From a virus: a DNA stretch of 64,000 bases. Shown here in pieces: positions 9,604 to 36,966 of this stretch. How positions within the stretch are numbered: position 1 is the first letter of the stretch; each line of letters begins with the position of its first letter. The notes under the pieces were generated by a model, which did not search any database, was not told the DNA's origin, and was given only the letters and a program-made list of their open reading frames with translations. The stretch covers positions 17,675-81,674 of IMG/VR virus record IMGVR_UViG_3300024353_000005. One strand, 5' to 3'. Position numbers and translations under genes: made by a program.

Positions 9604-9619
9604 TTTCTCTGCTTTCTTT

Positions 9620-16196: not shown

Positions 16197-16206
16197 CTAT
16201 TCCTCC

Positions 16207-17424: not shown

Positions 17425-17443
17425 CTCCTATTTTTAATAGTTT

Positions 17444-18851: not shown

Positions 18852-19420
18852 TTATTTTCCTTATAAGCTAATGATACGATTTTGAAAGGCTCAGAAACCC
18901 CACCACTAAAATAAGAAGCACATTTTAATGCCCTTTGAACTTTAACTTTAGCACAAATTTTCCAACCTTGTAACGCATATATGACTCCGAGAGCGTAGTC
19001 CTCTCCACAACCTGTTGCAATATAATCTGTTTCATCACATGCTACCTGAAAATCATTCTCAACAGTATATAAATTATCTTTATAGCCAATTATAAATGTT
19101 CCCCCTGTTTCCTGATTATTTTCAACTTTGGTATAGCCATTTTTCTTTAGGCACTTTTTAACAGCATCGATAAAATCTGTTACTAAATATTCGTAATCGC
19201 TTTTAGATGATTTTTGCTTCGGAATCTTTAACTTATATCTTAATAGTTGCCCCATTCTAAAAGAGGAAGTGAAACCAAATATCATATTCCCATTCTGAAA
19301 TACTTTTTCATCTTTCCTAATTCTGACATCTAAACCAGATACTCCAGCCGAGTCTCCACCGATGTAAAGTATTCCAGCCTCTCTATCATTATATCCGACT
19401 ATACAAGTGGTAGTTTTCAT
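18848..19420 (-). CDS. HslV/proteasome-beta-like Ntn hydrolase
   Basis: TTCIVG..GGDS, ATGCGEDYALG. Confidence 0.75.
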   Translation of the reverse strand: MKTTTCIVGYNDREAGILYIGGDSAGVSGLDVRIRKDEKVFQNGNMIFGFTSSFRMGQLLRYKLKIPKQKSSKSDYEYLVTDFIDAVKKCLKKNGYTKVENNQETGGTFIIGYKDNLYTVENDFQVACDETDYIATGCGEDYALGVIYALQGWKICAKVKVQRALKCASYFSGGVSEPFKIVSLAYKENK

Positions 19421-19746
19421 TTTATTCTTTTCCTAATGTTCTTATAAGGAGTTGGTTTATGACCAAGTATCCCACCAGTTTCTGTGTCTATCTTAATCCA
19501 ATATTTGGCTCTCGGATTAAAAACTTGAACTCTATTTTTAATATTCCTATTTCTCATTTTTATCATCCTTAATCTCTTTCGCCTCGAATAGAACCAAGTG
19601 CGCAATCTTATCTAATTTTTCAACTGCTTCAAGTATAATCTGTTTAAAGTGCTTATGAGATTCGTGCCTTAGTTCTATCTCCAAAAGCTCGACTTCCAGT
19701 TCTTTGAGTTCGAGATAGATTTTTCCGAGTCTGCGACAATCCGAGT

Positions 19747-20127
19747 TCATTTTATTTTCTCCCAATCTTTTCCATTCCAAATTTTATTATACTTCTCCTT
19801 CATCACAAACGCTAGCCAGAGTTGTTCAAATGATTTGAATTGTAACCAAGGTTTATCTTTTTCATTAAACAATGCTCCTACTCTATTATAAAAATGTAAC
19901 AGTAAATGCTGAACATCTTCTTTTGGTGCTACCATCTCCTGCAACTGGTCTTGGCGAGGGAGCCAGATTTCTTTATACTTATCATTCAAAAAGTATACAC
20001 AACTCTCGTCAAAATAAGTTACAGAAGTTTGAGAATAAGCAGTCATTGTTCTACATCTAAAAGGACATAAATTCTGTATCTCCTCCGCCTTCTCGCACAT
20101 CTTTATGTATTCTTTGGAAGTGTCCAT
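19747..20127 (-). CDS. Phage hypothetical protein
   Basis: MDTSKEYIKMCEKAEEIQ..WLPRQDQLQEM..EQLWLAFVMKEKY. Confidence 0.65.
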   Translation of the reverse strand: MDTSKEYIKMCEKAEEIQNLCPFRCRTMTAYSQTSVTYFDESCVYFLNDKYKEIWLPRQDQLQEMVAPKEDVQHLLLHFYNRVGALFNEKDKPWLQFKSFEQLWLAFVMKEKYNKIWNGKDWEKIK

Positions 20128-20128
20128 T

Positions 20129-22423
20129 TTACCTCCCGATAAAATCCTGAAAGTAAGTTTCCATTTCCTCTCTCGAAGCCTCTACTATCTTAGAAAAATT
20201 CTTATAAAACTTGTAATATAATTTTCCCTTAAAACCGCCTGTTTTATTCTTGATAACGCTTATCTCGATAACAGGCTGTGATTTCCCATTCTCATCCACA
20301 AAATATAAAGTGCTGTCATCCCGCAAATCAAAATCATTATAGAGCAGTGCCGTAAAATCGGAATCGAACTGCAAGTCAACGCACTCCTTTATATCGTCGC
20401 CCAGTGGCCTTCGTAGCGAGTTTATTTTCTTGAGTTCGGCTGTAGCCACGACTGGAATGTCATAATCGGTTTTCCACCTTTTCAACGTATCCGATACATA
20501 CATATATGTTTCCCTTACCGAGCCGAATCTTAATTCGCTTTTTATCCTGTGCAGATTATCAACGATTACAATCAACTGTTTCTTGCCTGCAATTTCCTTA
20601 TAAATCCTGATGTATTTTTCCATTTCCTCTATGCTACGAATATCGTTTTCCTCTTTTACAGCAAACGAACTCGACAAGGATTTCAAGTTGGTCATCGCTT
20701 TTTCACGGACTTTGAGCAATTCTTCGGCTCTTTCGGGTTCGAGTTCCTTATTATATTTAATCTTGAATTTTGGATTTGACACAGTATTTATTTCCAAGTT
20801 GGTATCGGCAGCAATTATTCTAGGAAGTATCTGCCTGATATTATCGTCAATAGAAAAGAACAATACAAAAACATCATTATATTTCGTAAGATTTAGGGCT
20901 AAATTTAATAAGACTGCCGACTTTCCTATGTTTGTTTGTCCAGCAAGCAAATAGAAAGCATTTTGTAATCCATCTAATTTTTTTGTGAGTATTGGATAAC
21001 CAGTTTTCAGACCCAAAAGTCCACTGCCCCTTGACCAAGCCCAAGACTCGAATTGGTTTACCTCAGTTTCAAGAGACGATTTTTCTTTCAGTATATCCCG
21101 TGAGGTTAATAAATACCTTCCCTGTCCCAACTTCTTATTCCGTTCTACTTCCTTTTTAAGTGCCTCAAAAGTAACATCCAAAACCTCGGCTAAATCCCTT
21201 ATCATCTGCTCAGTAGTTACATAATCTTCCTCGCTGACTACTAATTGTATCAGGTCATTTTTAAGAAATTCGTTCCCCTTATTATTTTTTAAGTCCTTGA
21301 GTTTCCACTCAAAAATGGTAAACTCTGGCAGATTAAGAAAATCCTCTGTGCTATGGCTTTGCAAATATTCATCTGGGTCTTTGTTCCCATTTGGCTCCTT
21401 GATAAAAACCTCTATATCCCTTTTCGCTTTTAATTTCTCCTCGATAATTCGGGTGGTCGCCTCTTTTCCCGCCTCATCATTGTCAAGGCAGAGTGTTAAT
21501 TGTTTAATTCGGTTATATACCAAGAGGTCATATTGTTTGTCGCTAAATCCCAAGCCACCCAAAGCGATAACATTATCTACTCCTCGCAAAGCCAAAGACC
21601 ACACATCAGCATAGCCTTCAACAAGATAGACTTTGGGATGATTTTTCGCCTCTTTTAAATTATATAATATCTCGGCTTTCTTATACAAATTAGTCGCCCT
21701 AAAGTTAATATATTTCTGTTCCCCATTTTTATCGCTTAATCTCCTGCTGGCGAACCCAGTTATCCTGCCATAGCCATCTCTGATAGGAAATACTAATCTG
21801 TTATTTAAAACGCCTTTGGCACTATTCTGGTTTTTCTCATTTGCTTTATCTGTTAAACCAGCCATTTCAAGTTGCTCTCTGGTATATCCCCGCTTTAAAA
21901 GATTAGCGATTAACTTGTCATAAAGACAGTAGCCAAACTCAAACTTGTCTATGATTTTATCCCATCGCCTTTTTCTGATATAATCCTTGACTTTTTTCAA
22001 CGATGAGTGTTCTTGTTTTATTACTGCTTTCATCATCTTGTTAGCCACTTCCAAAATTTCCCTTAACTGGCTTGCTTGCTTTTCTCTATCGCTTATATCC
22101 TCTACCTCATAAGAGATACCAAATTTTTTTGCCAAGTATAAAACATTGTCGGTAATAAACTCGTTTCCTGTAAGTGGCTTGCCTTCCAAAAAATAAGCAC
22201 AAGCAAATATATCAGCATTGGATACATCATCGCACACGAAACATTTGATATGCTCATCATCAGGAAAAAATGTTGCTGATGGAGAGTTATCATCATTTCT
22301 GTGATTAGAACGACAGGGACAAGTCAGGTGATTTCCCTCAAAATTTGTATCATGTTCTTCTAAATAATCCCGCAGATATGGTCTTATTTTATTTTTAAGT
22401 TCTTCTAAATTTTTTATTCGCAT
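20129..22423 (-). CDS. Primase-helicase (zinc finger, DnaG TOPRIM, DnaB-like SF4 helicase)
   Basis: CP..H..CFVC, LVFPI..GFASR, LVEGYAD, LDNDEAG, KDPDE, Walker A GQTNIGKS, IVDNL. Confidence 0.93.
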   Translation of the reverse strand: MRIKNLEELKNKIRPYLRDYLEEHDTNFEGNHLTCPCRSNHRNDDNSPSATFFPDDEHIKCFVCDDVSNADIFACAYFLEGKPLTGNEFITDNVLYLAKKFGISYEVEDISDREKQASQLREILEVANKMMKAVIKQEHSSLKKVKDYIRKRRWDKIIDKFEFGYCLYDKLIANLLKRGYTREQLEMAGLTDKANEKNQNSAKGVLNNRLVFPIRDGYGRITGFASRRLSDKNGEQKYINFRATNLYKKAEILYNLKEAKNHPKVYLVEGYADVWSLALRGVDNVIALGGLGFSDKQYDLLVYNRIKQLTLCLDNDEAGKEATTRIIEEKLKAKRDIEVFIKEPNGNKDPDEYLQSHSTEDFLNLPEFTIFEWKLKDLKNNKGNEFLKNDLIQLVVSEEDYVTTEQMIRDLAEVLDVTFEALKKEVERNKKLGQGRYLLTSRDILKEKSSLETEVNQFESWAWSRGSGLLGLKTGYPILTKKLDGLQNAFYLLAGQTNIGKSAVLLNLALNLTKYNDVFVLFFSIDDNIRQILPRIIAADTNLEINTVSNPKFKIKYNKELEPERAEELLKVREKAMTNLKSLSSSFAVKEENDIRSIEEMEKYIRIYKEIAGKKQLIVIVDNLHRIKSELRFGSVRETYMYVSDTLKRWKTDYDIPVVATAELKKINSLRRPLGDDIKECVDLQFDSDFTALLYNDFDLRDDSTLYFVDENGKSQPVIEISVIKNKTGGFKGKLYYKFYKNFSKIVEASREEMETYFQDFIGR

Positions 22424-22918
22424 AGATTATAATTATCCTCTCCAAAATATCTGCCACAAACCTTTAATAACTGTAGCAACTAAAAATCCCACCAGTCCAA
22501 TAAGACAGAGCATAAGAAATCCTGCTATTATTTGATAAAGTATTGTCATTTATTTTCTTTCTGGGTAGTTAAATACCCTTCTGTTCCATATAATTCCATA
22601 CTTATTGTCTTTAAATCATTTAGTTTTGCATAAATAGCAGGAAATGTGGAATGTTCTGATTTATCTGCCGACCAAAAATATAAATCTTTAAATATATTTG
22701 ACTTTAACCAAGTATTGTGTTTTGCCTTATAACAATGAGGCATCATATTTCTTAGTTCTTCTTTAGACAATACTTTCATTTCTCCACCTTTATATGCAAT
22801 CGTTCCAAGATAGTGTCCACGACAAAATACTCCCTCGCAACATCGTATTCCTCTCCCGAAGAAAGTATTTTCTCCACAAGGTTAATCAGTTTCCTGTATT
22901 TTCGCTTGCTAATATATC

Positions 22919-23146
22919 TCATACTTTTTTTAAAGTTCTCTTCTTTATTGTCCACTCACTTACCCAAACAAGTGCTCTATCATTTTTAAGTCGGATTTGA
23001 TATCTAGTCACAGAATTATGTGAACCCATTGGTACTCTCATTCTATCCATAAGTATTCCTGTTTGACCACTATAAAATCCTGCAATAATTTCAACCCTAT
23101 CTTTATAATGAAACTTTACGATTTTCTTTTTCTTTCGCCCAAACAT
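22919..23146 (-). CDS. Small KOW-motif protein
   Basis: DRVEIIAGFYSGQTG. Confidence 0.6.
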   Translation of the reverse strand: MFGRKKKKIVKFHYKDRVEIIAGFYSGQTGILMDRMRVPMGSHNSVTRYQIRLKNDRALVWVSEWTIKKRTLKKV

Positions 23147-23148
23147 TC

Positions 23149-24027
23149 TTATCTGCTCCTTTCATTATTTTTAATAAATTTATCACCATCTATCGTTTCC
23201 CGAAACTTGCGATTTCGCTTTATCCGATGAATATCCTTTATCACATACTCGTTTGCAAAAGTCCGCAATAATCCTGTGTGCATAGATAGCCGTCTTTCCT
23301 CAGCTTTCTTGAAAGACCAGTCCAGAAAATCTGGGACATCGTTTGCGGTCATATTGTTTTTCTCGAACTGCCTGATGAGGTTATTCATCTTAATACTGTC
23401 CATCGCCCAGTTCGGTGTGTATTTCTTCCCATAGGCATTGTTAAATTTGGACAGGAACACTCTCACCAGATAAGGTGCGTTTATCCTTCCCTCTTTGTCG
23501 GTAACTTTCTTCCTTGTATTCTTGGAATTTTTTTCAAGTGTGGTTGACAGATTTTTCAGAAACTCGTTTGCTGGAAATCTTCCACCCAAAATTTTAAGTG
23601 CTTTTCTCAACTTATACCAGCTCGGATATTTCCAACTGTCCAAAACTGGATTAAAGACATAAATCTTCGTTCCCTCTTTGATAAAAAATCCCACCCTATC
23701 AATGGCCTGCTTGACCAGATTTTTCTTTCCCTTCAAGGTCTGCAAGAAATCCTGCTGAAAATGCTGTGCGATTTCCTTCTTGACTATAAACTCTTTCAAG
23801 ACAACAGAACCCACAATATTATAATCTATCAGGCTATCCAGAGTAAGCGAGCCAACTGTGCTGTCTAATCCGATTTGGAGGCTAAGGTCTTTTAGGCTGA
23901 CTTTTTCGAAATTTCCCTTATCTGAATAAAAATAATATGTAAATAGCAGAAGCAAAACATTAATCTGCCTCTTGTTCAGTGGTAACAGATTTAGTGCGAT
24001 GAGTAAATCTTGGAAATCGGTTTTCAT
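23149..24027 (-). CDS. Hypothetical protein, possibly replication-initiator-like (wHTH)
   Basis: N-terminal wHTH-like segment; lies just upstream of the primase-helicase. Confidence 0.4.
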   Translation of the reverse strand: MKTDFQDLLIALNLLPLNKRQINVLLLLFTYYFYSDKGNFEKVSLKDLSLQIGLDSTVGSLTLDSLIDYNIVGSVVLKEFIVKKEIAQHFQQDFLQTLKGKKNLVKQAIDRVGFFIKEGTKIYVFNPVLDSWKYPSWYKLRKALKILGGRFPANEFLKNLSTTLEKNSKNTRKKVTDKEGRINAPYLVRVFLSKFNNAYGKKYTPNWAMDSIKMNNLIRQFEKNNMTANDVPDFLDWSFKKAEERRLSMHTGLLRTFANEYVIKDIHRIKRNRKFRETIDGDKFIKNNERSR

Positions 24028-24683
24028 TTACTCTCCTCTATGTTATTTAGGGTTTTTTTTACACCAAATTATAAAATGAATAGCTATAGCTATAAAAATT
24101 ATAACCAGAGCCCAAAAACAGTTCCTTGCTATTCCCTTACATATTGTATAAATTATCTCATAGCCTTCTATCTGTGTCATTTAATCTCCACATCTTTTAT
24201 TTGGTTGCACCCTGTATAATTAACAAAATCAATATACTTCATAAGTTCATATTCTTGTCTATATTTTATTACCTTCCAAATTTCTATAAACAAACCATAA
24301 TCTGTTTCCTGTACCAAATTGATTTTATTTGGATTAATCAGAGTTCCATTAGTATCGTTCTCAGCTAAACATTCATGATATATTTGCCTATTTTTTTCTG
24401 TGTAAATTCTAACCCTAAAATGTAGAGAAAATAGCCCAATGATAAATACTAAACTAAAAAGTAATAGTATTCCTCTATATAAAAATATTTTTTTCATTTT
24501 TTCCTCCTATCTGCCTAAAATTTTAGCCCCGTAAAAAATAAAGAAATTGATAGCCCCAAGCAAATAGTTAATAATACCTGTAGTCAACTGTATCGGTCTG
24601 ATTAACAAGCAGCAAGTTCCTGATATTATAAAGGCGATTACTGTTATAGGTTGGGCTATTCTTAAAATTATCTCTAACATTTT

Positions 24684-25397
24684 TTATTCTCCCCGATTAA
24701 ATTTTAGAATTTTTTGTTTCGCTTTATGTAAATCTTTTAGTTCATGTTCCCAAAAGATTAAAGTCTGATAACCGTAGGCTCCATAAACTATTGATCTTCG
24801 CTTATCTCTTTTTTTAGTATCTTTTCTATTGTGCCAATAATCGCCATAGAGTTCTATTATTTTCTTCTGACCATTATAATTTATGAAATCTGGATTTAAT
24901 CCTCCCAATATAACTTTTCCATTTCCGACATATTTATATTCATTTGGCAAGATTTTCTGAAGAAATTTATCTAATAGTTTCTCTGGTTTATTAGGCTTTA
25001 TCCTTAAAGATTTCATCCATTTTTTAATTACTCTATTTTTATACTCTTTATTCTGCCATCTCTTTAACATATTTCTTTTAAATTTTCTTTTCGTTTCTAA
25101 ACTATGTTTATAACCTTCCAACGATTTACTAATTCGATCTTTAATATTTTTGGAGATAATATGACCTTTTAGGGCTTCGCTTTTAGTTCTTATTTTTATA
25201 CTGTATTTTTTCAAATATTGTCTAATGGTTACATCGCTACAATTAAATATTTTAGCAATTTTCATTGATGATTTTCTATTCTCGATATATTCTTTAATCA
25301 AATATTGTTTAGTTATGGGGTATTTTTTGGGCCTTTTTAAAGCCGCTAATCTCATTTTCTGTTTAGTCTCTTTTGTATGTTTTGAGTTCAGCTTCAT
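24684..25397 (-). mobile_element. Free-standing homing endonuclease (NUMOD3 + Vsr/DUF559-like)
   Basis: HTKETKQKM and HSLETKRK repeats; PDFI..IIELYGDYWH..FWEHEL. Confidence 0.8.
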
Positions 25398-25561
25398 TTC
25401 AAAGTGTCCGCAGAATAGGCATAGCCATCTACGATAAAGAAATAAGTCTTGTCCTTATAAATGCCAGTTCCACCACAAGCCCTACAGTTCTTATCCTTGC
25501 CTTTGCAGATATAGCACTTTGCCTTGTTTATTCTGGTTATGACCTCTAATTTCTTTTTCAT
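25394..25561 (-). CDS. 55-aa zinc-finger protein (DnaJ-like CxxCxGxG)
   Basis: Manual translation: ..CYICKGKDKNCRACGGTG..; overlaps both neighbours by ATGA. Confidence 0.6.
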   Translation of the reverse strand: MKKKLEVITRINKAKCYICKGKDKNCRACGGTGIYKDKTYFFIVDGYAYSADTLK

Positions 25562-25920
25562 TTTATCTCCTCTATAACTTTATGTATTTTTATCATTTCA
25601 TTTGCAAAATTTTCTGCTTCGGTTTTTTCATCTAAATTAATTGTTAAACATTGATTAGGTTCTTCTGTAGGAATATAAGTTACTGTTTTAGTAATTTTAG
25701 TTTCAGAATTAGTAGCATAAATCTTAAAAGTATATTTCTTATTTGGTTCAAGTATCATTATAAAGGAATTTTCACCAGATAATCGCATATCATTAGAGAA
25801 TACTGCATCTATATTATAAGTAAGGCTTGGTTCTATATTTATCTTTACATACACTACATCCAAAGAAGAACAACCCATAACAAATAAACTAATTAAAAAT
25901 AAGCAAATTAATTTCTTCAT
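25558..25920 (-). CDS. Predicted lipoprotein
   Basis: MKKLICLFLISLFVMG-C lipobox. Confidence 0.7.
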   Translation of the reverse strand: MKKLICLFLISLFVMGCSSLDVVYVKINIEPSLTYNIDAVFSNDMRLSGENSFIMILEPNKKYTFKIYATNSETKITKTVTYIPTEEPNQCLTINLDEKTEAENFANEMIKIHKVIEEIK

Positions 25921-25921
25921 T

Positions 25922-26188
25922 TCATATCTCCTTTCTATCCAGTTTCTCCCTAATCGCTAAAGCCCTATCTATAAGCCTATCCCAGTTCTTTCGCAAATTT
26001 CTGGCTGTATCAAAACGAAAGCCCTCTTCCTTCAATTGGTCAAGGGCCATTTTGAATATACTTGGTGGGTTCTGGCGTTCAAAAGCATTGTAGATAAATT
26101 CTTCAACCTCTCTGTCTGTAACAGGATAGGTCATTTTTCTATCTTTTCTCAACTTTTTACCCCTCACTATATAGTGTTTTTCAGACAT
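25922..26188 (-). CDS. Hypothetical protein
   Basis: ORF abutting both neighbours. Confidence 0.6.
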   Translation of the reverse strand: MSEKHYIVRGKKLRKDRKMTYPVTDREVEEFIYNAFERQNPPSIFKMALDQLKEEGFRFDTARNLRKNWDRLIDRALAIREKLDRKEI

Positions 26189-26189
26189 T

Positions 26190-26531
26190 TTACAAGTACC
26201 CCTTAAGAGATTTTTTCAAATTATTTTTAGCACAATTGAGATACTCACTAACAGCTTGTTGACTAATTCCCAAAATTTTCCCTATTTCCTTCTGCTTCTT
26301 ATTCTTTATGAAGTATAATTTAATACATTGTCTTTGTTTTGGTGTCAAACTTTTTAGGGCCTTTCTAACTACTTTAGCAAGGTGCTCATGCTTCTTCTGA
26401 GTAACATCAAACTCGTTTTCCTCCTCCTCAATGAGAATTTCCAAAGGAGTCTTGGGTTCTTGTTCCTCTCTTAACAGTTCCAAAGTTCGAGCAGTCTTAC
26501 CTCGAAATATTTCCTTGTATTGTTTGGGCAT
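26190..26531 (-). CDS. Stand-alone sigma70 region-4 HTH protein
   Basis: ALKSLTPKQRQCIKLYF..QKEIGKILGISQQAVSEYL. Confidence 0.85.
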   Translation of the reverse strand: MPKQYKEIFRGKTARTLELLREEQEPKTPLEILIEEEENEFDVTQKKHEHLAKVVRKALKSLTPKQRQCIKLYFIKNKKQKEIGKILGISQQAVSEYLNCAKNNLKKSLKGYL

Positions 26532-26540
26532 AATTTTCTC

Positions 26541-27101
26541 CTATCTCACAGTTACATTAACATCAGTCTCTACATCTGTTTCATTAGTATTCTCATTGGT
26601 GTTAGTATTATTATTTGTTGTTGTAGCAGTTCCAGACCCACCTGTTGCAGAATTAGTTATAGTTCCTGTATAAGCTGTAGAAGTTATATTGCCCACAGAA
26701 GAACTACTTTGAGAAGCAATAGTACCCATATTTACACTTTGATTAAATCTTATTCTTTTAATAGCGTCTGTTACTTCTCGTAATGGCATACCTTGAGCAA
26801 TTAAGTACTCTCTCATTGCTTGAGCTTTAATAATTTCTATCTTAATTTCGTGTTCTCTTTGTATCTCAGTCTCGACTTGTCTTGTCCTCTCAATCATCCG
26901 TTGTTTATAATGCTCCTGCTCGGATAATCTTTCTTTCTCAGTTAAATTTCCCTGCAAATAGATACACCCATCTTTTTCGTAGTACTCACCTTTTAAATCT
27001 AATTCATTAGCTTTTGCTCCCCTTCCAAAAATTAGCAGAAAACCTACTATCACCAAAATTGTCACCACCATCCTAATTAAGCCTACTACTTCTTTTCTCA
27101 T
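26541..27101 (-). CDS. Exported/membrane-anchored protein with Thr/Asn-rich tail; first clear gene behind the riboswitches
   Basis: Signal-like N-terminus ending AKA; tail GTATTTNNNTNTNENTNET; GAGG RBS. Confidence 0.7.
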   Translation of the reverse strand: MRKEVVGLIRMVVTILVIVGFLLIFGRGAKANELDLKGEYYEKDGCIYLQGNLTEKERLSEQEHYKQRMIERTRQVETEIQREHEIKIEIIKAQAMREYLIAQGMPLREVTDAIKRIRFNQSVNMGTIASQSSSSVGNITSTAYTGTITNSATGGSGTATTTNNNTNTNENTNETDVETDVNVTVR

Positions 27102-27290
27102 TCTATCCTCTTTCTGCTTGTATTATAGCCAAATTTTTCTCTGGCCTCTATGAGCTATTTCTGAAGTTGCTACTTTACTATTCCATTTACAGTTTTTATT
27201 TTGACAATCTTTACAACCATTAAGCCTATCGAGTTCCTTTTTATAAAATTTATCCTTCTTTTCTCCCCTTTTCCAAGCCTCCTTTTCCAG

Positions 27291-27333
27291 AAAATAAAAA
27301 AGCCGAACCACCACAATATTCGGTAGCTCGGCT
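27291..27333 (-). terminator. Intrinsic terminator of riboswitch B
   Basis: AGCCGAGCUACCG/UGGUGGUUCGGCU stem followed by a U-tract; overlaps the aptamer 3' end. Confidence 0.85.
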
Positions 27334-27392
27334 ATCATTTCTGACCCGTAGCTTTGCGCTTCGCTATTTCAGCGAATTGCCTTTATCGTAAT
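27310..27392 (-). ncRNA. c-di-GMP-I (GEMM) riboswitch B (promoter-distal)
   Basis: AUUACGAUA-AAGGCAA-UUCGCU GAAAU AGCGAA-GCGCAAAGCUACGGGUC..GAUAGCCGAGCUACCGAA-UAUUGUGGU; 9-bp P1. Confidence 0.88.
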
Positions 27393-27445
27393 CTAAATTG
27401 TATATTAAAGTTACACTACTTTAGAGATCCTCCAATTTCTCTCCT

Positions 27446-27486
27446 AAAATAAAAAGCCGAATTGCCTATCCTTCGGCAACTCGGCT
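27446..27486 (-). terminator. Intrinsic terminator of riboswitch A
   Basis: AGCCGAGUUGCC/GGCAAUUCGGCU stem followed by UUUUAUUUU. Confidence 0.87.
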
Positions 27487-27549
27487 TCGCTTAAAGCGAC
27501 CTTGAGTTTTGCGCCCCACTAATTCAGTGGGTAGCCCTTTCGGAGATAG
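27466..27549 (-). ncRNA. c-di-GMP-I (GEMM) riboswitch A (promoter-proximal)
   Basis: CUAUCU-CCGAAAGGGCUA-CCCACU GAAUU AGUGGG-GCGCAAAACUCAAGGUCGC..GCGAAGCCGAGUUGCCGAA-GGAUAG. Confidence 0.82.
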
Positions 27550-27574
27550 TATTAAATTTCAACCTGTAATATTA

Positions 27575-27603
27575 AGTATACACTATAAAATCTAATTTGT
27601 CAA
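27575..27603 (-). promoter_or_regulatory. sigma70 promoter driving the tandem riboswitch leader
   Basis: TTGACA-17-TATACT. Confidence 0.85.
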
Positions 27604-27607
27604 GTCC

Positions 27608-29113
27608 CTAATTTTTATTTTTTTCAAATCTACTTTTTTCTCGTAATACCTGCAAAAATATATCTACTAATTCTGGATCAAATTGTTTTCCCTTCTCTCG
27701 TTCCAATTCTTCTATTGCTTGTTCCTTAGTTTTAGGATTTCCATTATAGGGTCTTTTGTGTATCATTGTATCATAACTATCTAAAATAGCAGTAATACGA
27801 GAAAGTAAAGGGATATTCTGACCTCTCAATCCATCAGGATAACCAGTTCCATCCCATCTTTCGTGGTGGCGTAATATGTAATCCGCTATATGAGAAAATT
27901 GCCTTACCCCTTTTAAAATGTTATAGCCTAAAATTGGATGAGTTTTCAGCTTTTTCCATTCTTTTTCAGTTAAAGGTTCTTTTTTATGAAGTATTCTGTC
28001 TGGAATGCCTATCTTACCTATATCGTGAAATTTAATAGTATAATGTAAATCTCTTATTTCTTGAAGTGATAAATGAAGTCTTTTAGCGAATTTAGCTCCC
28101 AATTTTATTAATCTATTATGATGTATTTGAGTTCCCATATCTTTTTGTTTCATAACTTCAATTAAACTATTAATAAATTCTTTCTGAGCAGTGCCTTCTT
28201 TATCCATTTTATCTTTATACATTTCTTCATCTGCTTTAGATATATATCTATTTAAATCTTCTTTTTTAAATTCAGTTATTGTAATAGATCCAATAGCATA
28301 GTTAATATTAATTTTTTTAACTTCTAAAGAATAAGATTTACATTTTCTATTTAATTTCTTAATAATTTCTTCTGCACGACTTCGGTCTGTTTGTTTAAGA
28401 AGGATTGAAAATTCGTCCCCCCCAATTCGTGCTACTACATCGTCTTGTCTTACGCAATTTCTCATAGACTTTCCAAAATATCGAAGTATCTTATCCCCTG
28501 CTGGATGTCCCCAAGTATCATTAATAATTTTTAAATGATTTACATCTATTGAGATTATAGAAATGGGATAGTTTCTTTTAGTATTTATTCTTCTCAATTC
28601 TTCTTCAAAATAAGTTCTGTTATATAACTCTGTCAACGAGTCGTGATAGGCATTATATTTTATCTGCTCTTGTAATTTTCTGTGCTCAATTCTACTTTTT
28701 TGTAATTGCAATTTTATTTGTCGCTTTGTTTGTCTTGCCATATACTCTTGAAAACTTGTTTTTATAACCTCCAGAAAAGTTAATGTGTCATAGGGTTTTA
28801 TCAAAAGCTTTTTAATTCCTATTTCTAACAATTGTTGTGTTTGTTTTAATGTTAAAATTAAACCAGTTATTACTATAATACAAGTGTCAGGATAATTTAA
28901 TTTTATATAATAAGCTAAATCTACCCCATTTCCATCAGGTAATTCAATATCAATTATTACTACTCCAATATTATTTTCTTTGAAGATTTTCAACCCTTCC
29001 TGAAAAGAATTAGCAATTAAAGTTTTATAACCCTGAGCTTGAAGATTTATAGAAATAGCTTTTGCTAATTCTTTGTCATCTTCTATAATAGCTATTTTAG
29101 GAATATTATTCAT
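27608..29113 (-). CDS. REC-GGDEF-HD-GYP protein (diguanylate cyclase / c-di-GMP phosphodiesterase)
   Basis: REC: IIEDD, IIDIELPDGNG, ITG, IKPY. GGDEF: DSLTELYNR, NDTWGHPAGD, RQDD I-site, RIGGDEF. HD-GYP: HDIGK, HHERWDGTGYP. Likely start 29113. Confidence 0.95.
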   Translation of the reverse strand: MNNIPKIAIIEDDKELAKAISINLQAQGYKTLIANSFQEGLKIFKENNIGVVIIDIELPDGNGVDLAYYIKLNYPDTCIIVITGLILTLKQTQQLLEIGIKKLLIKPYDTLTFLEVIKTSFQEYMARQTKRQIKLQLQKSRIEHRKLQEQIKYNAYHDSLTELYNRTYFEEELRRINTKRNYPISIISIDVNHLKIINDTWGHPAGDKILRYFGKSMRNCVRQDDVVARIGGDEFSILLKQTDRSRAEEIIKKLNRKCKSYSLEVKKININYAIGSITITEFKKEDLNRYISKADEEMYKDKMDKEGTAQKEFINSLIEVMKQKDMGTQIHHNRLIKLGAKFAKRLHLSLQEIRDLHYTIKFHDIGKIGIPDRILHKKEPLTEKEWKKLKTHPILGYNILKGVRQFSHIADYILRHHERWDGTGYPDGLRGQNIPLLSRITAILDSYDTMIHKRPYNGNPKTKEQAIEELEREKGKQFDPELVDIFLQVLREKSRFEKNKN

Positions 29114-32100
29114 TTTTTCTCTCTCAAATAAACCATTCGTCTTACACATCCCGCAGGAATTAGTATAGGCTCATCTTCAGGATGACCATTTATTCTCTTC
29201 AGAACAACTTTCTCTTTATCCTTATGCCATAAATAACCAACGATTTTTATTTCAGGCAATACTAAATCTTCTATTTTCCATACTCCTTTACCATAAGAAA
29301 TCATATCTACGAGGGTAATCTCTACTCGCTTGTATTCTCTTTTCCTTTTACCCATCTTTATTCTCCTTTATATTTCCATAATTTTGATAATCAGCCAACA
29401 AATTAAAAGAATTAATAATACTGCTAATAACAGCATCTCATTTCCCCTTCTTTCGATACTCATTAAATAATCTATTTCTTTCCAGCGGACAATCCTTACA
29501 ACTCTTTCTCTTACAAATCCAACAAAGAGGCTCTGTGTTCTTTAAGATATAATCAACATTTTCCTCTAAATGTTTAATTGCCATTGCTTTTTGTAAAAAT
29601 ACTCTTGGATTAATTTTCATTTATGTCCCTTTTTTATACTAAAAATCTTCTTACAACTCATACAAAGACTTACTCGTTGTTCCTGACTATTTGAAAATTT
29701 AATGACTACCTTCTGTGTATTCTCACTTTTACAATATGGACAACAATTATTTTTCATTATATCTCCTTTATCTATCTGGTTTATATTCCTCTTTTTCCCG
29801 ATAAATTAAGTAAGAAACTAGAAACAAGAAAACGATTAATCCTATTCCTATCTTAAGTAAAAACATTTTATAGTCCCCCTTGCTATTTTATATTAAAGAT
29901 GAAAGAAGACAAGATAAAATCTCTGTTAAGATATAGCCAATCCGTAAAATCAACAAGCCAAAAACTATTGCAAGACTAACAACTGCTACAGTAAATATGT
30001 TTTTATAAGTCATTTTATCCTCCTTATTTATAGTTCTACTATTTTGTAATCTTGGGCACAATTCACTCTCGCCCATTGTTCGGCACTATGCCCACTTCCA
30101 AAAAAGATAACATCCCCCTCTTCATTTCTATCTATACTACAATTGTCATAAGTATCTTTAACATACTCGATTACGATGTACATTATTTTATTCTCCTATT
30201 AAAATTCTTTTTTTACTCCGAGATACTTTGCTATCTTCTCTGCAATTTCTGCTTTCTTCTTAAGGTCAGTCAAATCAATATGAAAATAGTTAGCATACTC
30301 TCTTAATTGTTTTGTGGTTAATTCACATCTTAGCATTTGCCAATCGGTTTTTCTCATTCCTTTATGCCTCCATTCCAATATGTTTACAACAAGTTTTACA
30401 CATTAAAACTACTGCTTCTTCATTATTTTTTTCCAGAACCAAATTAGCTTTTTCATATTTTATCATTAAATCTATTCCGATATCTTTAATAGTAAAAGCA
30501 AAGGGTGATTGTTCATTGCCACAAGTCTTACAATTAGGATATAATACATTTTCATCTCTACTATATACTTTTGTGCCTAAGATTAATTTACTCATTTTTT
30601 CTTTCCCTTTATTATCTCTACTAATTTAGAACATTCATCCAATATTTGACTTTCGTTTACTTATCCTAGCCCTTCTAAATACAAAGTCTGTATTAACATA
30701 ATAATAATCATAATATAAATCTGAAGATATAACTAAATTATTATGTCTTCCCTTATCTTTTCCAAGAACTTCTAATAATTTTTGGGTTTCTTCAGGAGAT
30801 AACCAATCTACCAATGTAAAAGCCTTATCATTCATAGTCCACTTAGCATCCATTATCTTTCTCCAACTTTTGTTAATCTCTATTTTTCTTTACTCCCTTT
30901 AATTGCTTTCGACCCGCCATTGATTTAACCTATATCAGGCTGTCCCGTTCTTTCGGTAGCCTACCACTTTTAATCTATATGGTTTCTTGACAGGCAAACA
31001 AGACAGCCTATTTTATTCCTTTTCAATATCTAATTCTAATAGTATATCATCTAAAATATCCGAAGCGGAAGGCAACTGTATTTCCTCATTTTCAACATAG
31101 ATGCCGCTTAAATATTTGTCAATGAGTTTTTCTACTGTTGCATAATCCTGTCTATCAATTTTAATTTTAGGCATTACCTTCCTCCTTTGGTTCTATTGGA
31201 GAATTACTACTCCCTCCCTGTGATTGACTATAACAATATATTGTTTGTTTTAATTTATTTGCTATTGGTTGAGCTAATTTTTCGCCCCTGTCAAATTCTC
31301 CAATCGTTGGTTTTTCATCTTGATATAATACTTCTATTATTTTGTCAACCCAACCCTGTCTTGTTCTATAAGTTTTTCTTCCCTTGCCTACCACCACAAA
31401 AGTTAAATGCTTATCTCTTAAATCAACTCCTGTATTACTATATAAATCATCAGAATTAGTGTGCCAGGGTGCTTTTAATTCTTCTATTGTTCCATCTTCC
31501 AAAGTAAAAGATAGTGTTCTTCCACCAAAACCATCGGAATTTTTGCCACCAGATACATAGATATTATCAGCAGGATTATCCTGAATAGCGTATAACCAAA
31601 TTCTGCCTGACTTTCCAATTACCTTTTTGTATCGTCTTTCCTCTGCTTCAGAATGACCGCATAGCATCGGTTGTCTATCAATTATATAATCCATTTTTCC
31701 ATCTCCCTTATTCTTGAAAATCAACTTTAGTCCCATTCTCATAATAAGCCTCGTCTGGATGATTTTGGCAGTATCCAAACTCTATCCCAAAGTCATTGTA
31801 AGCCCAGAAAGACTTGAGGCACTTCGGGCACCTGCCCCTTGATACCCAGAATTTTGTCCCTAAGTGTTTAATCAAAGCATAACAAATATCTAAAAACCAA
31901 ATTATTACAAATATAATATATATTAACAAAAATTTATTCATTTTTATTCTCCTAATCCTCATCGTAAATAAATCCGCACTCGCTACAAACAACCTCATAA
32001 CTGCCCCTACTGCTTCGCATAACTATATCCCCACCGCAGACTATACAAGGTCTTTTCCTGTTGGTATATTCCAGCCTTTCTTCAGAAGATAAATTTCTAA

Positions 32101-32520
32101 ATCTCGCCTCACCATCCAAAAACTGTAACCCTCTGAGGGCATTTTTTATGTTGGCAAGCTCAGTTTCTAAAGTCCGCAATTCTTGGTCTGTTAGGTAGTA
32201 ATACATTTTATTTCTCTTGCCCCTTTAACTTCTTACTAAAACATTCTTCCGAACAGATAGTATGACAACAGTTCTCTATAAACCATTTTTTGCGATAAGG
32301 ATTATCAAAATCTTCTTCTTTGCCACATATATCACAAATAATAATTCTTTTTATCCCCATTTTATTTCTCCCAATTTTCTCTCGGTCTCAATTCCTCGAC
32401 CTTATACTGCCTGCAAGCTGGGCAATAGCAGTCATCATTCAAATCGCATTCACAGTCGATACATCTGCCCGTCTTTATCATTTCCTCTGCTCTCTGTTCC
32501 TGATTTATAAAGTAAAGTAA
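29110..32520 (-). other. Cluster of small hypothetical early/middle genes (29110-29355, 29438-29620, 30362-30595, 30635-30853, 31167-31778, 31708-31998, 31952-32206 and others)
   Basis: Dense minus-strand ORFs with GGAG RBSs, several with zinc ribbons. Confidence 0.6.
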
Positions 32521-32539
32521 ATCGCCTAATTCTCCCATC

Positions 32540-32917
32540 TTACTCTCCTTTTAATAATTCTGGGCTTTCATATATGTTGCCTATAATCTCTATCATTTTA
32601 GTTTGTTTTAATATATTGCTATAACCGCTTTCCTCGAACTTCACAATAAAACTTCTATCTATTATTATATCTTTGCCCTCTTCTGTTTTGACTTTAGGAA
32701 CAAAAAGTCTAACTATATTTTTTTCATATATTTCTTTACCATTCTTATCCTTAAGGCCAGTATATTGTTGAATATCTATCGCTGTAATAAATCTTAATTC
32801 GCATTTAGTAAAAAATCTACTTAAAGTCAGGAACTTATCAGAATAGATAAATCTATTTGCTCTTTTATCCCAAGCCCTAAACTTTATCTCTCTCATCTCA
32901 ATACTCCTTCCCAGCAA
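32540..32917 (-). CDS. YopX family protein
   Basis: MREIKFRAWDK..QYTGLKDKNGKEIYE..IIGNIYE. Confidence 0.92.
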   Translation of the reverse strand: MLGRSIEMREIKFRAWDKRANRFIYSDKFLTLSRFFTKCELRFITAIDIQQYTGLKDKNGKEIYEKNIVRLFVPKVKTEEGKDIIIDRSFIVKFEESGYSNILKQTKMIEIIGNIYESPELLKGE

Positions 32918-33155
32918 CCTTAACTCGTTCTATGGTTTGCAAATTGACAGTTCGGAAAGCATTTTTATTCATATCAAAAACAGTAAGCAATCCCTTGAGA
33001 ATAGGATAGTATCTCATACCCTTACCAGTAACCCCTTTCTTCACTCCGAGCCGACAATTCATACTTCGCCGAGTCCCGTCCTTCTTGGTAAAGACGATGT
33101 TCATTATCCTGCCATTGGAGTCTTGGATTTTCTTCAGCATTTCGGATTGGGTCAT
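32898..33155 (-). CDS. SH3/WYL_2-like beta-barrel protein
   Basis: FTKKDGTRRSM..VFDMNKNAFRTVN. Confidence 0.75.
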   Translation of the reverse strand: MTQSEMLKKIQDSNGRIMNIVFTKKDGTRRSMNCRLGVKKGVTGKGMRYYPILKGLLTVFDMNKNAFRTVNLQTIERVKVAGKEY

Positions 33156-33354
33156 TTTAGTTTCCTTTCTTTAGCATACTTATCTATTTTTATATAACTT
33201 CCTTTTGCCACCATTCTTTTTGTATAACATTGAGGACATAATTTCATAGCCACTACTTCTGGAGTATATGCTTTTACTCTAAATTTCTTTTTACAATCTT
33301 GGCAAGTAAATATTTTATCTTTCATTTAAAATCTCCTTTCCAAGTCTCACTATA

Positions 33355-33383
33355 AGTATACCATATTTTAGGGTGTTTGTCAA
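33355..33383 (-). promoter_or_regulatory. Early sigma70 promoter
   Basis: TTGACA-17-TATACT with extended TG. Confidence 0.82.
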
Positions 33384-33838
33384 GTTTTATTTTTATATTC
33401 TTTTAGCAGAATGCTCGCTATTCTGGATGCGTTTCTTTCTAACTTCTGCCTAACATGGCTATTTATATCCACGACATTCGTTCTCCATTCCTCAAAATAT
33501 TTTCCAAACCATCTGGGGTATCTATATTTCTGCAAGTAATGAGCGGTTTCGTGTGCTACTATAAAATATAGTCTATCAAAAAACTTCATTGGTGGGACTG
33601 CTTCTGCGTATCTATTTATATCCTTAAATTCCTTTAAAAACTTTAATCCATACAATAAAAAATTTTCGTTTTGTTTATAAGTACAATTTGGATATAAAAA
33701 GTTAAATTCTATTTCAATAAGAGGCAGTTCAAGCCTCTTCATAATTTCCCAACTCCACTGCCTAATCACATTTTTTAATTGCTCATTCTCATCCATTTTA
33801 ACATCCTCGATTTTGGGGTTTACTTTTCTAAGTTGCAT
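33380..33838 (-). CDS. HExxH zincin-like metallopeptidase
   Basis: VAHETAHYLQ..LERNA. Confidence 0.65.
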   Translation of the reverse strand: MQLRKVNPKIEDVKMDENEQLKNVIRQWSWEIMKRLELPLIEIEFNFLYPNCTYKQNENFLLYGLKFLKEFKDINRYAEAVPPMKFFDRLYFIVAHETAHYLQKYRYPRWFGKYFEEWRTNVVDINSHVRQKLERNASRIASILLKEYKNKT

Positions 33839-34677
33839 TTCCCTACTTTTTCACTTTTCGCAATATCAGTTAAGCAACTCATTATTTTTGCTATCATAAC
33901 CTCGTTCGCATTAAGAAGTTATATCCATTTACTACACAATGTAGTATTACTATAAGATATAGATTTATTATAATCTGAAGCAAGTCTAGTTCTCAAAATC
34001 GCCAATTTTTCGCCTATATCCTCCTATCATAAAAAGAGTTATGCCAATCTTCAACAAAATATAGTAGAAATCGTACTATTGTTATATATTATATATGCTC
34101 TATATAGTAACTGATAATATAGGATCGGTTTAGGGATTTAGTTTATCATTTACTTGAAATTTCTTATATGCCTTTTCTGCCCGTTCAGCATAAGCAAACC
34201 AGTAATCCTTTTTCTTGGTATTGCCAGCTTTTTCAAACTGTTCGGCTTTCTTAAGTGCCTCGTTTACCAGAGTCATATTGTAAGACATTTTAGTTCTCCT
34301 TTTTTATATTTCTCATAAACGCAATTAAATCTACAATTCTTTTCTGTAGCTATTAAATTAGTCCATTGTCTCCATTTTTTAACAAATCTATATATTTTAC
34401 AATAGAAAAACCTAAGACTAAACCACCTAAAGGCTCTCCAATTAATAATGCGATTAATCCTATAACAGAGAAAACAGTAAACCCTACAGTATGAAATATT
34501 TTTTTTCGCAATGTAAGTTTAATCATTTTATTCTTCCTTTCAATTATATATACTCGTTATGATAACTTAATTCTCTAACACAATTTTCATAAGTTCCAGT
34601 ATAAACACAATGGCTAAAGATATAAGCTGAATAAGTCCCATCATTATTTTTAATAATTCTAACTGCTCGCACTTTAT

Positions 34678-35872
34678 TTACTCCTTATATTCTGCATTTG
34701 TAGATTTTCTTATAGTAACATTATTTACATTTAATTCTGCATCAATAGCTACTGCTAATCTTTCAGCGTATTTAAAAGCACATTCATATGGTTGTCCTAG
34801 TCCTAATTCTAATTTCATTGTTACAGTATAAATTTCTACAACTTCTAAGTCATATCCTCCAGCGTCTCCTAATTTCCATACATTAATTTTTAAACCATTA
34901 TACATTTTAGCCATTATTTTTTCTCTTTCTCTTTAGTTTCTTTTTCCGTCTTGTTCTTTTCTTAGGCTGTTTCTCAAAGTATTCCCTCTCCTTTTGTTTA
35001 TGTATCTCAAGCCACCTTAAGTATTTTTGAGCTTGGTTAAGAGCCTTCCTCTGCCTCTCATTCCCTCTTTCTTCAAACTGTCGGCTCAATTCTAAATCTT
35101 CGGCTATTACGAGCCAGAAAGTCAAATTTTTTGGCATCTTAGGCTTTTTCATTTTATCTCCTTTAAATATTTTTTAAGACATCTATTACAAGGAACATAT
35201 CCAAAATGCCTCATATAAAATCTATCTAAAGAAAACTTTTCTTTCCGAGTTTTCCACGAAAGTAAACCATTATACCTTTCCCAGACAAACTGTAAGACAC
35301 AACATAGAGGGTATCTATATCTAAACACTCCCCCCACAAAATCAGCTAATAAACCTTTGAAAGTTGTTTTTTTATAGCAACAAGCATAATCAATATCTTT
35401 CATTTTATTTACCCCATATAAAATACAATATTTTAAGCATTTTTTCCATCAATTTCGGCACAGTATTGTAAGTTTCCTTAATTATATCTTCTGTTCGTTC
35501 AAGTCCATTTTTCTTTATAGACTCCCTCACACAGTCATATATTCTAGCCCTGGCCAAAATTTTAATCGCTTCTTCTGGAGTATATCCCTCTTTATTTTTA
35601 TCAATAAAAGGATAATTCTCTCCCATCTCATCATATTGTCTATCGCTATCGAATATCATTTAATCCTCCTCTAATAGTTCTTCTACCTCACAAAAATTAT
35701 CTCCAAATTCTTCTTTGAGAAGTTTTACATCTTCTTCGTCATTCAAATCCATACCAGCACTTTGTAAAATATCTTCAGCAATAGTATCTTGCCCATACAT
35801 TAATACTGTTCTTACTGCTATAAGTATTCCTCTTGTTAAATACTCTTTTTGTATCTTTGTTAAATTACTCAT
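34678..35872 (-). other. Five small hypothetical early genes
   Basis: Contiguous ORFs 34678-34914, 34907-35152, 35149-35403, 35405-35659, 35660-35872. Confidence 0.6.
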
Positions 35873-36147
35873 TTTATTCTCCTTTTATAATTAGATTTTC
35901 TAACAATAATACTTGCTATCAAAAGAGGGATTAGCAAAACCAATAAAGTGCCGAGTAATATGTTTACAAATTCATTCATTTTATCCTCCTGTATATTTAT
36001 CCTTTATGCTTTGCTCGTCTCCGATACTTCTTGTTTCTATAGTTCTATTGCAAGTTTTACAAAGGCCAGCATAAACTCTTTTAGTTTCATCATATTGCAA
36101 TTCTATAATCTCTCTACATTTTGAGCATTTAAAGACTTTGTAGATAA

Positions 36148-36609
36148 TCATTTTAAATCCTTTCCCTCGATTTGGTATTGTAGTGCTTCTGCTATATGCT
36201 GGCCTTTGAGTTCTTTGGAGTCGTCTAATTCTGCGATAGTCTTTCCTACCCTAATAGTAGAAGATAACTCTTTACAATTAAGGTTAAGTTCTTTCATAGC
36301 AGTTTTCAAAAGTTCTTTTGCTTCCCCATCTATCTTTTCTTCAAAAGTGATATCTTCAAATCTAATATCTGGAGCTTTAACTGTAATATCTGTATAAGGT
36401 AAAGCCTTTTGATATTCTTCTATTTCTTTTAGTTCGCAAGAACATTCCCTATTTTTACTCAAATAATTTCCACAGGGGCAAGGTTTGAAGGCAGGAAGAG
36501 TAGCCCCCTCGTAAATTTCAGGATTGTTCGTAATAATTTTATAGGTGTGTTTACCTGCTTTTGCTACCTCAATAGCTCTTTCAACTAAAGGGCTAATTTT
36601 TACTTTCAT
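36148..36609 (-). CDS. Miniaturised ComM/YifB (Mg-chelatase-like) protein without ATPase motifs
   Basis: RAIEVAKAGKH, PCPCG..CSC, IRVGKTIAEL..HIAEALQY. Confidence 0.8.
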   Translation of the reverse strand: MKVKISPLVERAIEVAKAGKHTYKIITNNPEIYEGATLPAFKPCPCGNYLSKNRECSCELKEIEEYQKALPYTDITVKAPDIRFEDITFEEKIDGEAKELLKTAMKELNLNCKELSSTIRVGKTIAELDDSKELKGQHIAEALQYQIEGKDLK

Positions 36610-36937: not shown

Positions 36938-36966
36938 AGTATACCACATAAAATCCATTTTGTCAA
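36938..36966 (-). promoter_or_regulatory. Early sigma70 promoter (a second TTGACT-16-TAAAAT lies at 36891-36918)
   Basis: TTGACA-17-TATACT with extended TG. Confidence 0.82.

Follow-up and report, generated by a model that had tools for sequence, protein, structure and literature searches.

A predicted c-di-GMP cyclase gene and two serial c-di-GMP-I riboswitches form a candidate regulatory cassette ahead of the replication genes of an uncultivated tailed phage

Signalling by cyclic di-GMP (c-di-GMP) is usually treated as a bacterial lifestyle system, and a 2023 review mentions isolated phage elements only, namely one GGDEF-only protein and, separately, one PhiCD119 riboswitch (PMC10333796). 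The closest viral elements are Cdi1_4 and Cdi1_5 of the PhiCD119-like prophages phiCD630-1/2 of Clostridioides difficile, which likewise combine a GEMM-I aptamer with a terminator in a phage genome; they are single, belong to a temperate phage, work as OFF switches (less transcript at high c-di-GMP) and precede an antitoxin RNA, and the passages that describe them report no adjoining phage c-di-GMP enzyme (PMC3649979, PMC7699646). Several complete c-di-GMP-I riboswitches are likewise placed serially in one leader of Bacillus thuringiensis, but that tandem is chromosomal rather than viral, lies upstream of the cspABCDE mRNA, and is not reported to be linked to an enzyme gene (PMC4759541). The subject here is a locus in the virus record IMGVR_UViG_3300024353_000005 (G000), of which a stretch of 64,000 nucleotides (the window; bases 17675-81674 of the record) was analysed. 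Unlike Cdi1_4 and Cdi1_5, this locus has two serial switches with a predicted ON layout, beside a phage cyclase gene and at the head of a replication block. It is interpreted, at about even confidence, as a regulatory cassette that is mobile and sits in a phage that is probably virulent; its gene for a c-di-GMP enzyme, its promoter of host type and its two complete riboswitches in series would form a gate between early and replication genes. All features of the cassette (enzyme, promoter, aptamers, terminators and putatively gated genes) lie on the minus strand, and in the direction of transcription they are the following.

29110-29355, minus strand: gene of 81 amino acids at the left border of the cassette (from the list of open reading frames, ORFs)
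27608-29113, minus strand: enzyme gene, 501 amino acids, REC-GGDEF-HD-GYP (Pfam, motifs, TIGR00254)
28763-29095, minus strand: REC domain, residues 7-117 (Pfam Response_reg PF00072, 61.1 bits)
28199-28651, minus strand: GGDEF domain, residues 155-305 (Pfam PF00990, 134.6 bits)
27668-28147, minus strand: HD-GYP domain, residues 323-482 (Pfam HD_5 PF13487, 120.5 bits)
27603-27575, minus strand: promoter TTGACA-17-TATACT of the sigma-70/sigma-A type, matching at 11/12 positions
27471/27472-27546, minus strand: aptamer 1, c-di-GMP-I (GEMM-I) (RF01051 33.5 bits, E 2.8e-6; RF03167 31 bits)
27443-27488, minus strand: terminator 1 (hairpin 27488-27453), 14-bp stem and U run, -24.4 kcal/mol
27319-27391, minus strand: aptamer 2, c-di-GMP-I (GEMM-I) (RF01051 57.1 bits, E 1.6e-8)
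27291-27333, minus strand: terminator 2 (hairpin 27333-27301), 13-bp stem and U run, -21.0 kcal/mol
27102-27290, minus strand: remainder of the leader (alignment, sequence)
26541-27101, minus strand: first putatively gated gene, a predicted exported protein of 186 amino acids
26190-26531, minus strand: second putatively gated gene, 113 amino acids (Pfam Sigma70_r4, 45.7 bits; PHROG sigma-factor families)

Aptamer 2 lies above the curated gathering score of RF01051 (57.1 versus 35 bits), and each aptamer has an expression platform of its own, as in tandem complete riboswitches. The 5' arm of terminator 1 is the 3' strand of helix P2 of aptamer 1, overlapping the aptamer match by 18 nt, and the 5' arm of terminator 2 is the 3' strand of P2 of aptamer 2, with an overlap of 15 nt. 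Because the 3' half of each aptamer is the 5' arm of its terminator, the two folds are mutually exclusive: folded alone, each aptamer forms P1 (P1a/P1b) and P2, and with its 3' extension a terminator of 12-14 bp replaces P2. The whole leader has a folding z-score of -4.76. Ligand binding should block termination, which would make the design an ON design, and both switches should have this layout. Both aptamers have an unpaired G 5' of P1a, the sequence CGCAAA (with an A after the 3' strand of P1a) and CC before GAA, and the G and A positions of both fit the c-di-GMP-I consensus and not the GGC variant model (CGCGAA). The G before P1a, the A after its 3' strand and the C of CC are taken here to be ligand-contact positions 20, 47 and 92, respectively. 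A G at position 20 is reported to favour c-di-GMP over cAMP-GMP (PMC10333796). Both elements are annotated as predicted c-di-GMP-I aptamers, which at the presumed position 20 have the c-di-GMP-type G rather than the A of variants that sense cyclic GMP-AMP (cGAMP).

A search of viral records with the primase-helicase of the window returned three relatives: G001 (106,111 bp, 100% complete and with direct terminal repeats), the fragment G002, and G003 (primase 84% identical to that of the window); their loci are numbered below as L083 (G001) and L085 (G003). G001 and G002 have two GEMM-I matches in the same place (L083 5919-5994 and 6064-6136), and keep the promoter, both terminators and the Shine-Dalgarno sequence. 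The G001 ortholog of aptamer 1 scores 57.2 bits with the sister model RF03167, its RF01051 score being hidden by clan competition, and the ortholog of aptamer 2 scores 49.3 bits. Pairs were assigned by hand and compared between these two lineages. Among the 20 pairs of aptamer 1, 14 are unchanged, four have changed on both sides, one on one side, and one is non-standard; among the 19 pairs of aptamer 2, 18 are unchanged and one has changed on one side (none on both sides, none non-standard), and the other differences are confined to loops. The 3' arms of the terminators differ between the window and G001 only by changes that keep the pairs, and all four terminators of the two phages have folding energies of -21 to -24 kcal/mol. 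The four compensatory pair changes support aptamer 1 as a predicted structured element despite its sub-threshold score. A covariance model built from the four aptamers matched only those four in the window, L083 and L085, and an exact 26-nt aptamer/terminator string was found among viral contigs in G001 and G002 only.

The gene upstream of the switches is not the same in the two phages. G001 has there a GGDEF-only protein of 172 amino acids, with SGDEF and a RETD site, which shares 34% identity with the window enzyme over residues 126-258 of the latter; a cyclase with SGDEF is reported to be capable of activity (PMC3974145). HD-GYP is present in G000 only among G000-G003, and EAL, PilZ and c-di-GMP-II were found in none of the four. 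The upstream enzyme has been swapped between the phages, and the linkage of cyclase and riboswitches has been kept. Because G001 retains the promoter and both riboswitches with a cyclase only, and G003 has no cassette, the conserved unit is a cyclase gene plus tandem predicted ON switches. An earlier note on this DNA, made from the sequence alone, proposed that the phage writes, erases and reads one second messenger at a single locus; the linkage of writer and reader is kept in G001, and the HD-GYP eraser is not conserved, being absent from G001. Three more distant records (primase 41% identical, 14-32% complete) contain neither GGDEF nor aptamers; over the seven related records, cyclase and aptamers are both present in three, both absent in four, and in no case present singly.

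The bordering genes have homologs in the relatives. The homolog of the 81-amino-acid gene encodes 84 amino acids in L083 and 78 in L085, and the exported-protein gene corresponds to L083 6180-6761 and L085 3530-4099. The 78-amino-acid gene of G003 directly abuts the sigma-region-4 gene, and the exported-protein gene lies 1.3 kb upstream. Directly upstream of the latter there is a run of 11 C (L085 3495-3506), possibly an assembly artefact or a slippage-prone tract. Genes of the DUF559/HNH-like homing-endonuclease type (window 24684-25397, minus strand, and 59321-60205, plus strand; L085 2373-3185 and 4115-4783) sit at differing places in the related phages, and one of those in G003 occupies the exact position of the c-di-GMP cassette region.

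The enzyme gene begins with an ATG that overlaps the stop of the 81-amino-acid gene (ATGA), which itself has no Pfam, PHROG or NCBIfam match. Besides the three Pfam domains, the enzyme is matched by TIGR00254 (NCBIfam, 133 bits). The receiver is intact, with EDD at residues 11-13, the phospho-acceptor D54 (VIIDIELP), T83 and K106, the set that characterises response regulators. The GGDEF domain is intact also, with RQDD (the RxxD inhibitory site) five residues before GGDEF, and with the guanine-binding motif NDTWGHPAGD, whose last residue, D and not S, confers GTP specificity. The HD-GYP motifs HDIGK and HHERWDGTGYP are intact and align to the solved chain 4mcw, which is the closest to this half of the protein (E 2.6e-36) and is annotated only as a metal-dependent phosphohydrolase; we take it to be a c-di-GMP phosphodiesterase. 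The second-best solved relative of this part is 5z7c, a 3'3'-cGAMP-specific phosphodiesterase (E 1.1e-28), and the closest solved chain to the REC-GGDEF half is 6zxm. Four metagenomic relatives (P0002-P0005) are 81-85% identical to the enzyme, and its catalytic and regulatory motifs are invariant across all five variants. The enzyme should be a phosphorylation-controlled cyclase and phosphodiesterase of c-di-GMP, as judged from these motifs. The parts described in the earlier note have been borne out: the phospho-acceptor Asp, GGDEF, RxxD, HD and GYP motifs are all in the translation, the promoter TTGACA-17-TATACT does lie just past the enzyme stop at 27608 (4 nt after the TAG, 11/12), and each aptamer does have its terminator, with hairpins of 14 and 13 pairs followed by a T run.

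This promoter is the best site within 24000-30000. Overall, this AT-rich DNA has no excess of promoter-like sites (35, versus 28.7 ± 5.5 in shuffles). The pattern TTGAC-N18-TAnACT, by contrast, has five matches, each of them on the minus strand and within 27,575-39,235, versus 0.12 expected, and none of 100 shuffles reached five. Because the pattern recurs five times, always on the minus strand, the promoter at 27603 is assigned as the last of an early-promoter family, being the most downstream of the five; the others are as follows.

39235-39207, minus strand: early promoter, TTGAC-N18-TAnACT
38529-38501, minus strand: early promoter, TTGAC-N18-TAnACT
36966-36938, minus strand: early promoter, TTGAC-N18-TAnACT
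33383-33355, minus strand: early promoter, TTGAC-N18-TAnACT

Transcripts of these four predicted promoters must likewise pass both putative terminators. Beyond the terminators, the leader has a Shine-Dalgarno-like AAGGAGG (27284-27278) that is common to the window and G001. Between this conserved sequence and the ATG of the exported-protein gene, the window has about 175 nt (27102-27277) that are missing from G001, and that contain a lone TATAAT (27127-27122) and an open frame (ORF 27123-27338) with a CxxC...C motif; no canonical start for this frame was found after terminator 2, and no minus-strand promoter of at least 9/12 was found in 27102-27290. The 186-amino-acid protein encoded next has a hydrophobic N-terminus, a charged middle and a tail rich in S, T and N; it has no match in Pfam, PHROG or NCBIfam, and a search of the Atlas gave no useful match (best feature score 0.79, template-modelling (TM) score at most 0.35). 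The 113-amino-acid protein matches only the C-terminal half of TIGR02937 (profile positions 74-165 of 165; 55.5 bits), and sigma region 2 (PF04542) was not found in G000. The sigma-like protein seen earlier is therefore not a full sigma factor, since it has region 4 (Sigma70_r4) and no region 2; it is a predicted region-4-type DNA-binding protein. A separate ORF of 175 amino acids in G001 has region 2 of sigma-70 (G001:C1:75103-75300, 33.8 bits) and no counterpart of it was found in G000 (77% complete); it may be a partner of the region-4-only protein or an alternative to it.

The genes that may be read onward from the gated promoter include these.

3-26188, minus strand: co-directional genes possibly read from the gated promoter (Pfam, tight packing)
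20129-22423, minus strand: primase-helicase, 764 amino acids (Pfam)
3-1025, minus strand: uracil-DNA glycosylase (UDG) and PolA 3'-5' exonuclease (Pfam)

Pfam matches and the layout of ORFs confirm that co-directional genes extend through the primase-helicase to replication genes. The array downstream of 27101 is tightly packed or overlapping, with only seven gaps of at least 40 nt in 27 kb. No terminator-like site was found on the minus strand between 27301 and 23334, after which there are weak ones (5-7 bp) at 23334 and 17541. The claim that no comparable promoter occurs downstream is true of 8000-27575 on the minus strand, where the best promoter-like sites are 10/12 and none is 11/12, and fails further on, where there is one 11/12 site (ATGACA-17-TATAAT, 4462-4434, minus strand). 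The promoter scan covered sigma-70-type sites only. The 11-mer ACTGGTGGGAT occurs exactly twice (19469-19479 and 22486-22496, minus strand), each time in what looks like an intergenic gap, once ahead of the HslV-like gene and once ahead of the primase-helicase gene, and with one mismatch it has four matches where 0.66 are expected. The copy at 22486 is in a possible hydrophobic mini-ORF of 26 codons, and the 11-mer was set aside as a phage promoter element, at least one copy being inside this plausible open frame.

That the window belongs to a tailed phage (Caudoviricetes type) and not to a bacterial chromosome is evident from the occurrence together of portal, protease, capsid and replication genes. 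On the plus strand Pfam identifies a portal protein (43620-44978), a prohead protease, a major capsid protein and fibre proteins with collagen repeats, and on the minus strand the primase-helicase, ClpP, peptide deformylase and the ORF for UDG and PolA 3'-5' exonuclease, which continues past the start of the window; the two blocks diverge near 43,000. The linear source record in IMG/VR has 81,674 bp and an estimated completeness of 77%, and comes from an uncultivated phage of about 100 kb. One DNA sequencing run, probably of the source sample, contained one identical contig with no variants in the leader. Tyrosine integrase was not found in any of the four records (G000-G003), the complete G001 included; the phage is probably virulent, and the suggestion that the cassette might serve as a lysis/dormancy checkpoint is left without support as far as a choice between lysis and lysogeny is concerned.

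The following mechanism may be proposed. With no ligand, both terminators would form, and transcripts of the cassette promoter, as well as early read-through from upstream, would stop. With c-di-GMP bound, the aptamers would hold the shared strands, and the polymerase would read into the exported-protein and sigma-region-4 genes, and probably onward into the replication genes. Since two serial switches would multiply their probabilities of read-through, the leak would be low and the response steep; control by tandem c-di-GMP riboswitches is reported to be more stringent and digital (PMC4759541). The phage's own early enzyme would supply or adjust the ligand, so that expression of the replication genes would lag behind that of the early genes by a feed-forward delay. 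HATPase_c (kinase) domains were not found in G000 or G001, and because no phage kinase was found, the input to the receiver is proposed to come from the host: a host kinase or a small phosphodonor, acting through the receiver and HD-GYP domains of the window enzyme, would decide whether ligand is made or destroyed. The fullest version, a virulent phage with a self-contained second-messenger timer, in which the early cyclase raises c-di-GMP until the serial switches open and a host kinase vetoes or licenses this through the receiver and HD-GYP, is put forward tentatively, at rather less than even confidence.

Several observations weigh against the proposed gate. Of the two GEMM aptamers that the earlier note recognised, for which it suggested a check with RF01051, aptamer 2 stands at 57.1 bits and aptamer 1 falls narrowly below the gathering score (33.5 versus 35). 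G003 has the same downstream genes with no GGDEF, cassette or riboswitch; therefore the gate would be an accessory layer, and the downstream genes can be expressed without it, so that the anatomy fits the view of riboswitches gating a replication operon and the distribution among relatives shows this gate to be dispensable. G001 and G002 have the same scores at the same coordinates, and are effectively one lineage, which leaves two independent carrier lineages. A lone TATAAT is located 20 nt upstream of the exported-protein ATG, and phage-specific promoters downstream are possible, given that the scan was for sigma-70-type sites. The predicted enzyme could either raise or lower c-di-GMP. The searches made did not lead to a host, nor therefore to the c-di-GMP physiology that it has: the best named cellular relatives of the enzyme are 40-45% identical proteins of metagenome-assembled genomes labelled Atribacteria/Atribacterota, Bacillota and Halanaerobium, a weak host lead. 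Close relatives of the enzyme were absent from viral contigs in a single-protein search; a metagenome scan with the five-variant alignment gave 80 loci, all distant (24-42% identity) and P0002-P0005 not among them; a scan of genome contigs with the enzyme alignment gave six distant loci and no host lead; and a search with the peptide deformylase found only metagenomic, mostly phage-like relatives, again with no host lead.

Alternatively, the switches might mainly read the c-di-GMP of the host (sessile or motile state, stress), replication being allowed only in suitable cells, and the enzyme might chiefly reprogramme the host (surface structures, motility, superinfection) rather than feed the switches. 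This is possible, though on the unlikely side. The receiver, with no phage kinase, points to host input, and ON switches would suit this reading just as well; the product of the first gated gene is a predicted exported protein, a frequent kind of target for bacterial c-di-GMP riboswitches, which are reported to include exported and collagen-binding proteins among their targets (PMC3649979). It is harder to reconcile with the cyclase gene being kept directly upstream of the switches despite the swap of enzymes, and the joint presence or absence of cyclase and switches in 7/7 related records is easier to understand if they work together. Control might instead be local, the switches governing the exported protein and perhaps the sigma-region-4 protein, and unrecognised downstream promoters driving the replication genes, in which case there would be no checkpoint. 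The separate location of the exported-protein gene in G003, where the sigma-region-4 and replication genes follow the 78-amino-acid gene with no riboswitch, is consistent with this, as are the restriction of the scan to sigma-70-type promoters and the separate 175-amino-acid region-2 ORF of G001, which could direct phage-specific promoters. The lack of a minus-strand terminator-like site from 27301 to 23334, the tight packing or overlap of the genes (seven gaps of at least 40 nt in 27 kb) and the lack of an 11/12 minus-strand promoter in 8000-27575 argue the other way, and purely local control appears quite unlikely.

Two further explanations may be considered. If the HD-GYP domain degraded an immune cyclic dinucleotide such as 3'3'-cGAMP in counter-defence, the riboswitches would be unrelated to it. 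The specificity of 5z7c, the second-best solved relative, for 3'3'-cGAMP hints at such a role, which is nonetheless very improbable: the best solved relative is 4mcw (E 2.6e-36), presumably a c-di-GMP phosphodiesterase; G001 has no HD-GYP, yet keeps cyclase and switches; and where variants that sense cGAMP have A, at the presumed position 20, each aptamer has the G typical of c-di-GMP sensors. Prospects are similarly slender for a decaying passenger, that is, a bacterial cassette in the course of being lost, in which switches or enzyme no longer function. The sub-threshold aptamer 1, the extra 175 nt or so with no clear gene after terminator 2, and the one relative (G003) that has no cassette would suit such decay. 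The enzyme motifs, however, are intact and invariant among five variants, compensatory changes maintain the helices of aptamer 1, the four terminators all lie at -21 to -24 kcal/mol, and the promoter is conserved. The cassette is still best read as a gate, fed or adjusted by the phage enzyme, between early and replication genes.

Other features of the genome may be mentioned. In a protein of 1253 amino acids (11780-15541, minus strand), tetratricopeptide repeats and a family-2 glycosyltransferase are combined with two methyltransferase domains, one of them FkbM; the neighbouring gene is UDP-glucose dehydrogenase-like (10698-11543), and the two may serve to modify DNA or the cell surface with sugars. 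Genes for protein turnover are unusually numerous: two regions of the minus strand (9067-10054 and 17444-19420) encode ClpP, a membrane protein of the MgtC family, trypsin-like and HslV-like peptidases, and peptide deformylase. The peptide deformylase has at least 13 metagenomic variants (63-86% identity), from which the phage group would be larger than IMG/VR shows. The primase-helicase of G003 (L085 10001-13570) has 1189 amino acids versus 764 in the window, and the extra 400-odd residues, directly after the Walker-type GK motif and ending in HN, look like an intein with a homing-endonuclease core. Within the structural module, between the portal gene and an AAA ATPase, a protein of 1164 amino acids (45075-48569, plus strand) with no PHROG match has an ATP-dependent DNA ligase domain (residues 299-490). 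In the early region, an ORF of 153 amino acids (36148-36609, minus strand) matches AAA proteins of the Mg-chelatase/ChlI type in their C-terminal parts only, and has the look of a fragment or of a minimal lid domain.

GGDEF genes of phages or prophages are in themselves no novelty, since PHROGs already contains several GGDEF families of unknown function and IMG/VR has at least 477 stretches with GGDEF relatives. The synteny of GGDEF with GEMM, which the earlier note suggested looking for in viral databases, occurs in the close relatives G001 and G002. When the best 80 of the at least 477 GGDEF-bearing viral stretches were scanned with RF01051 (E <= 0.001, a procedure that finds both aptamers in G000), none of these 80 other records had a c-di-GMP-I match. 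A loose GEMM pattern matched at least 116 stretches of viral contigs, but none of the 78 records tested had an RF01051 match, and these chance matches are uninformative on frequency. In the literature within reach, outside which lay subscription journals and bioRxiv supplements, the searches found isolated phage c-di-GMP elements only and no phage enzyme and riboswitch together, in agreement with the earlier note, which knew of no such complete phage circuit.

Should the self-contained timer be real, no earlier viral circuit would be known in which a bacterial second messenger is written, erased and read so as to schedule the development of the virus. A phage with maker, breaker and two sensors together in one cassette, where early and replication genes meet, would show that a virus can possess a whole second-messenger circuit and use it to time its development or to sense the state of the host. 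The cassette is compact, about 2 kb with a consensus promoter and two predicted terminator-type ON switches, and could serve as a steep c-di-GMP-dependent expression switch.

Other systems resemble the locus in part. The short GGDEF-only protein of phage YuA is a stand-alone domain like the 172-amino-acid SGDEF protein of G001, and the passage that describes it reports no riboswitch alongside (PMC10333796). The pilM switch of Geobacter metallireducens has the GEMM-I fold and is turned ON by a ligand that prevents the terminator from forming, as proposed here for the phage leader, but it is bacterial and single, and senses 3'3'-cGAMP through an altered ligand-contact nucleotide (PMC10118264). 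Cellular GGDEF-HD-GYP proteins and 4mcw share the catalytic domains and motifs of the phage enzyme; most of the listed cellular relatives have PAS or GAF sensors and 600-870 amino acids, whereas the phage enzyme has a receiver instead and is encoded by a virus. The arbitrium system times a decision by means of a secreted peptide, made by the phage and read by a protein receptor, that passes between cells. The logic of the proposed gate would be similar, in that a phage makes and reads its own signal, but here the signal would be a second messenger that stays inside the cell and is read there by RNA. The parts of the locus are known; what is new is their arrangement in a virus and the place that they occupy there.

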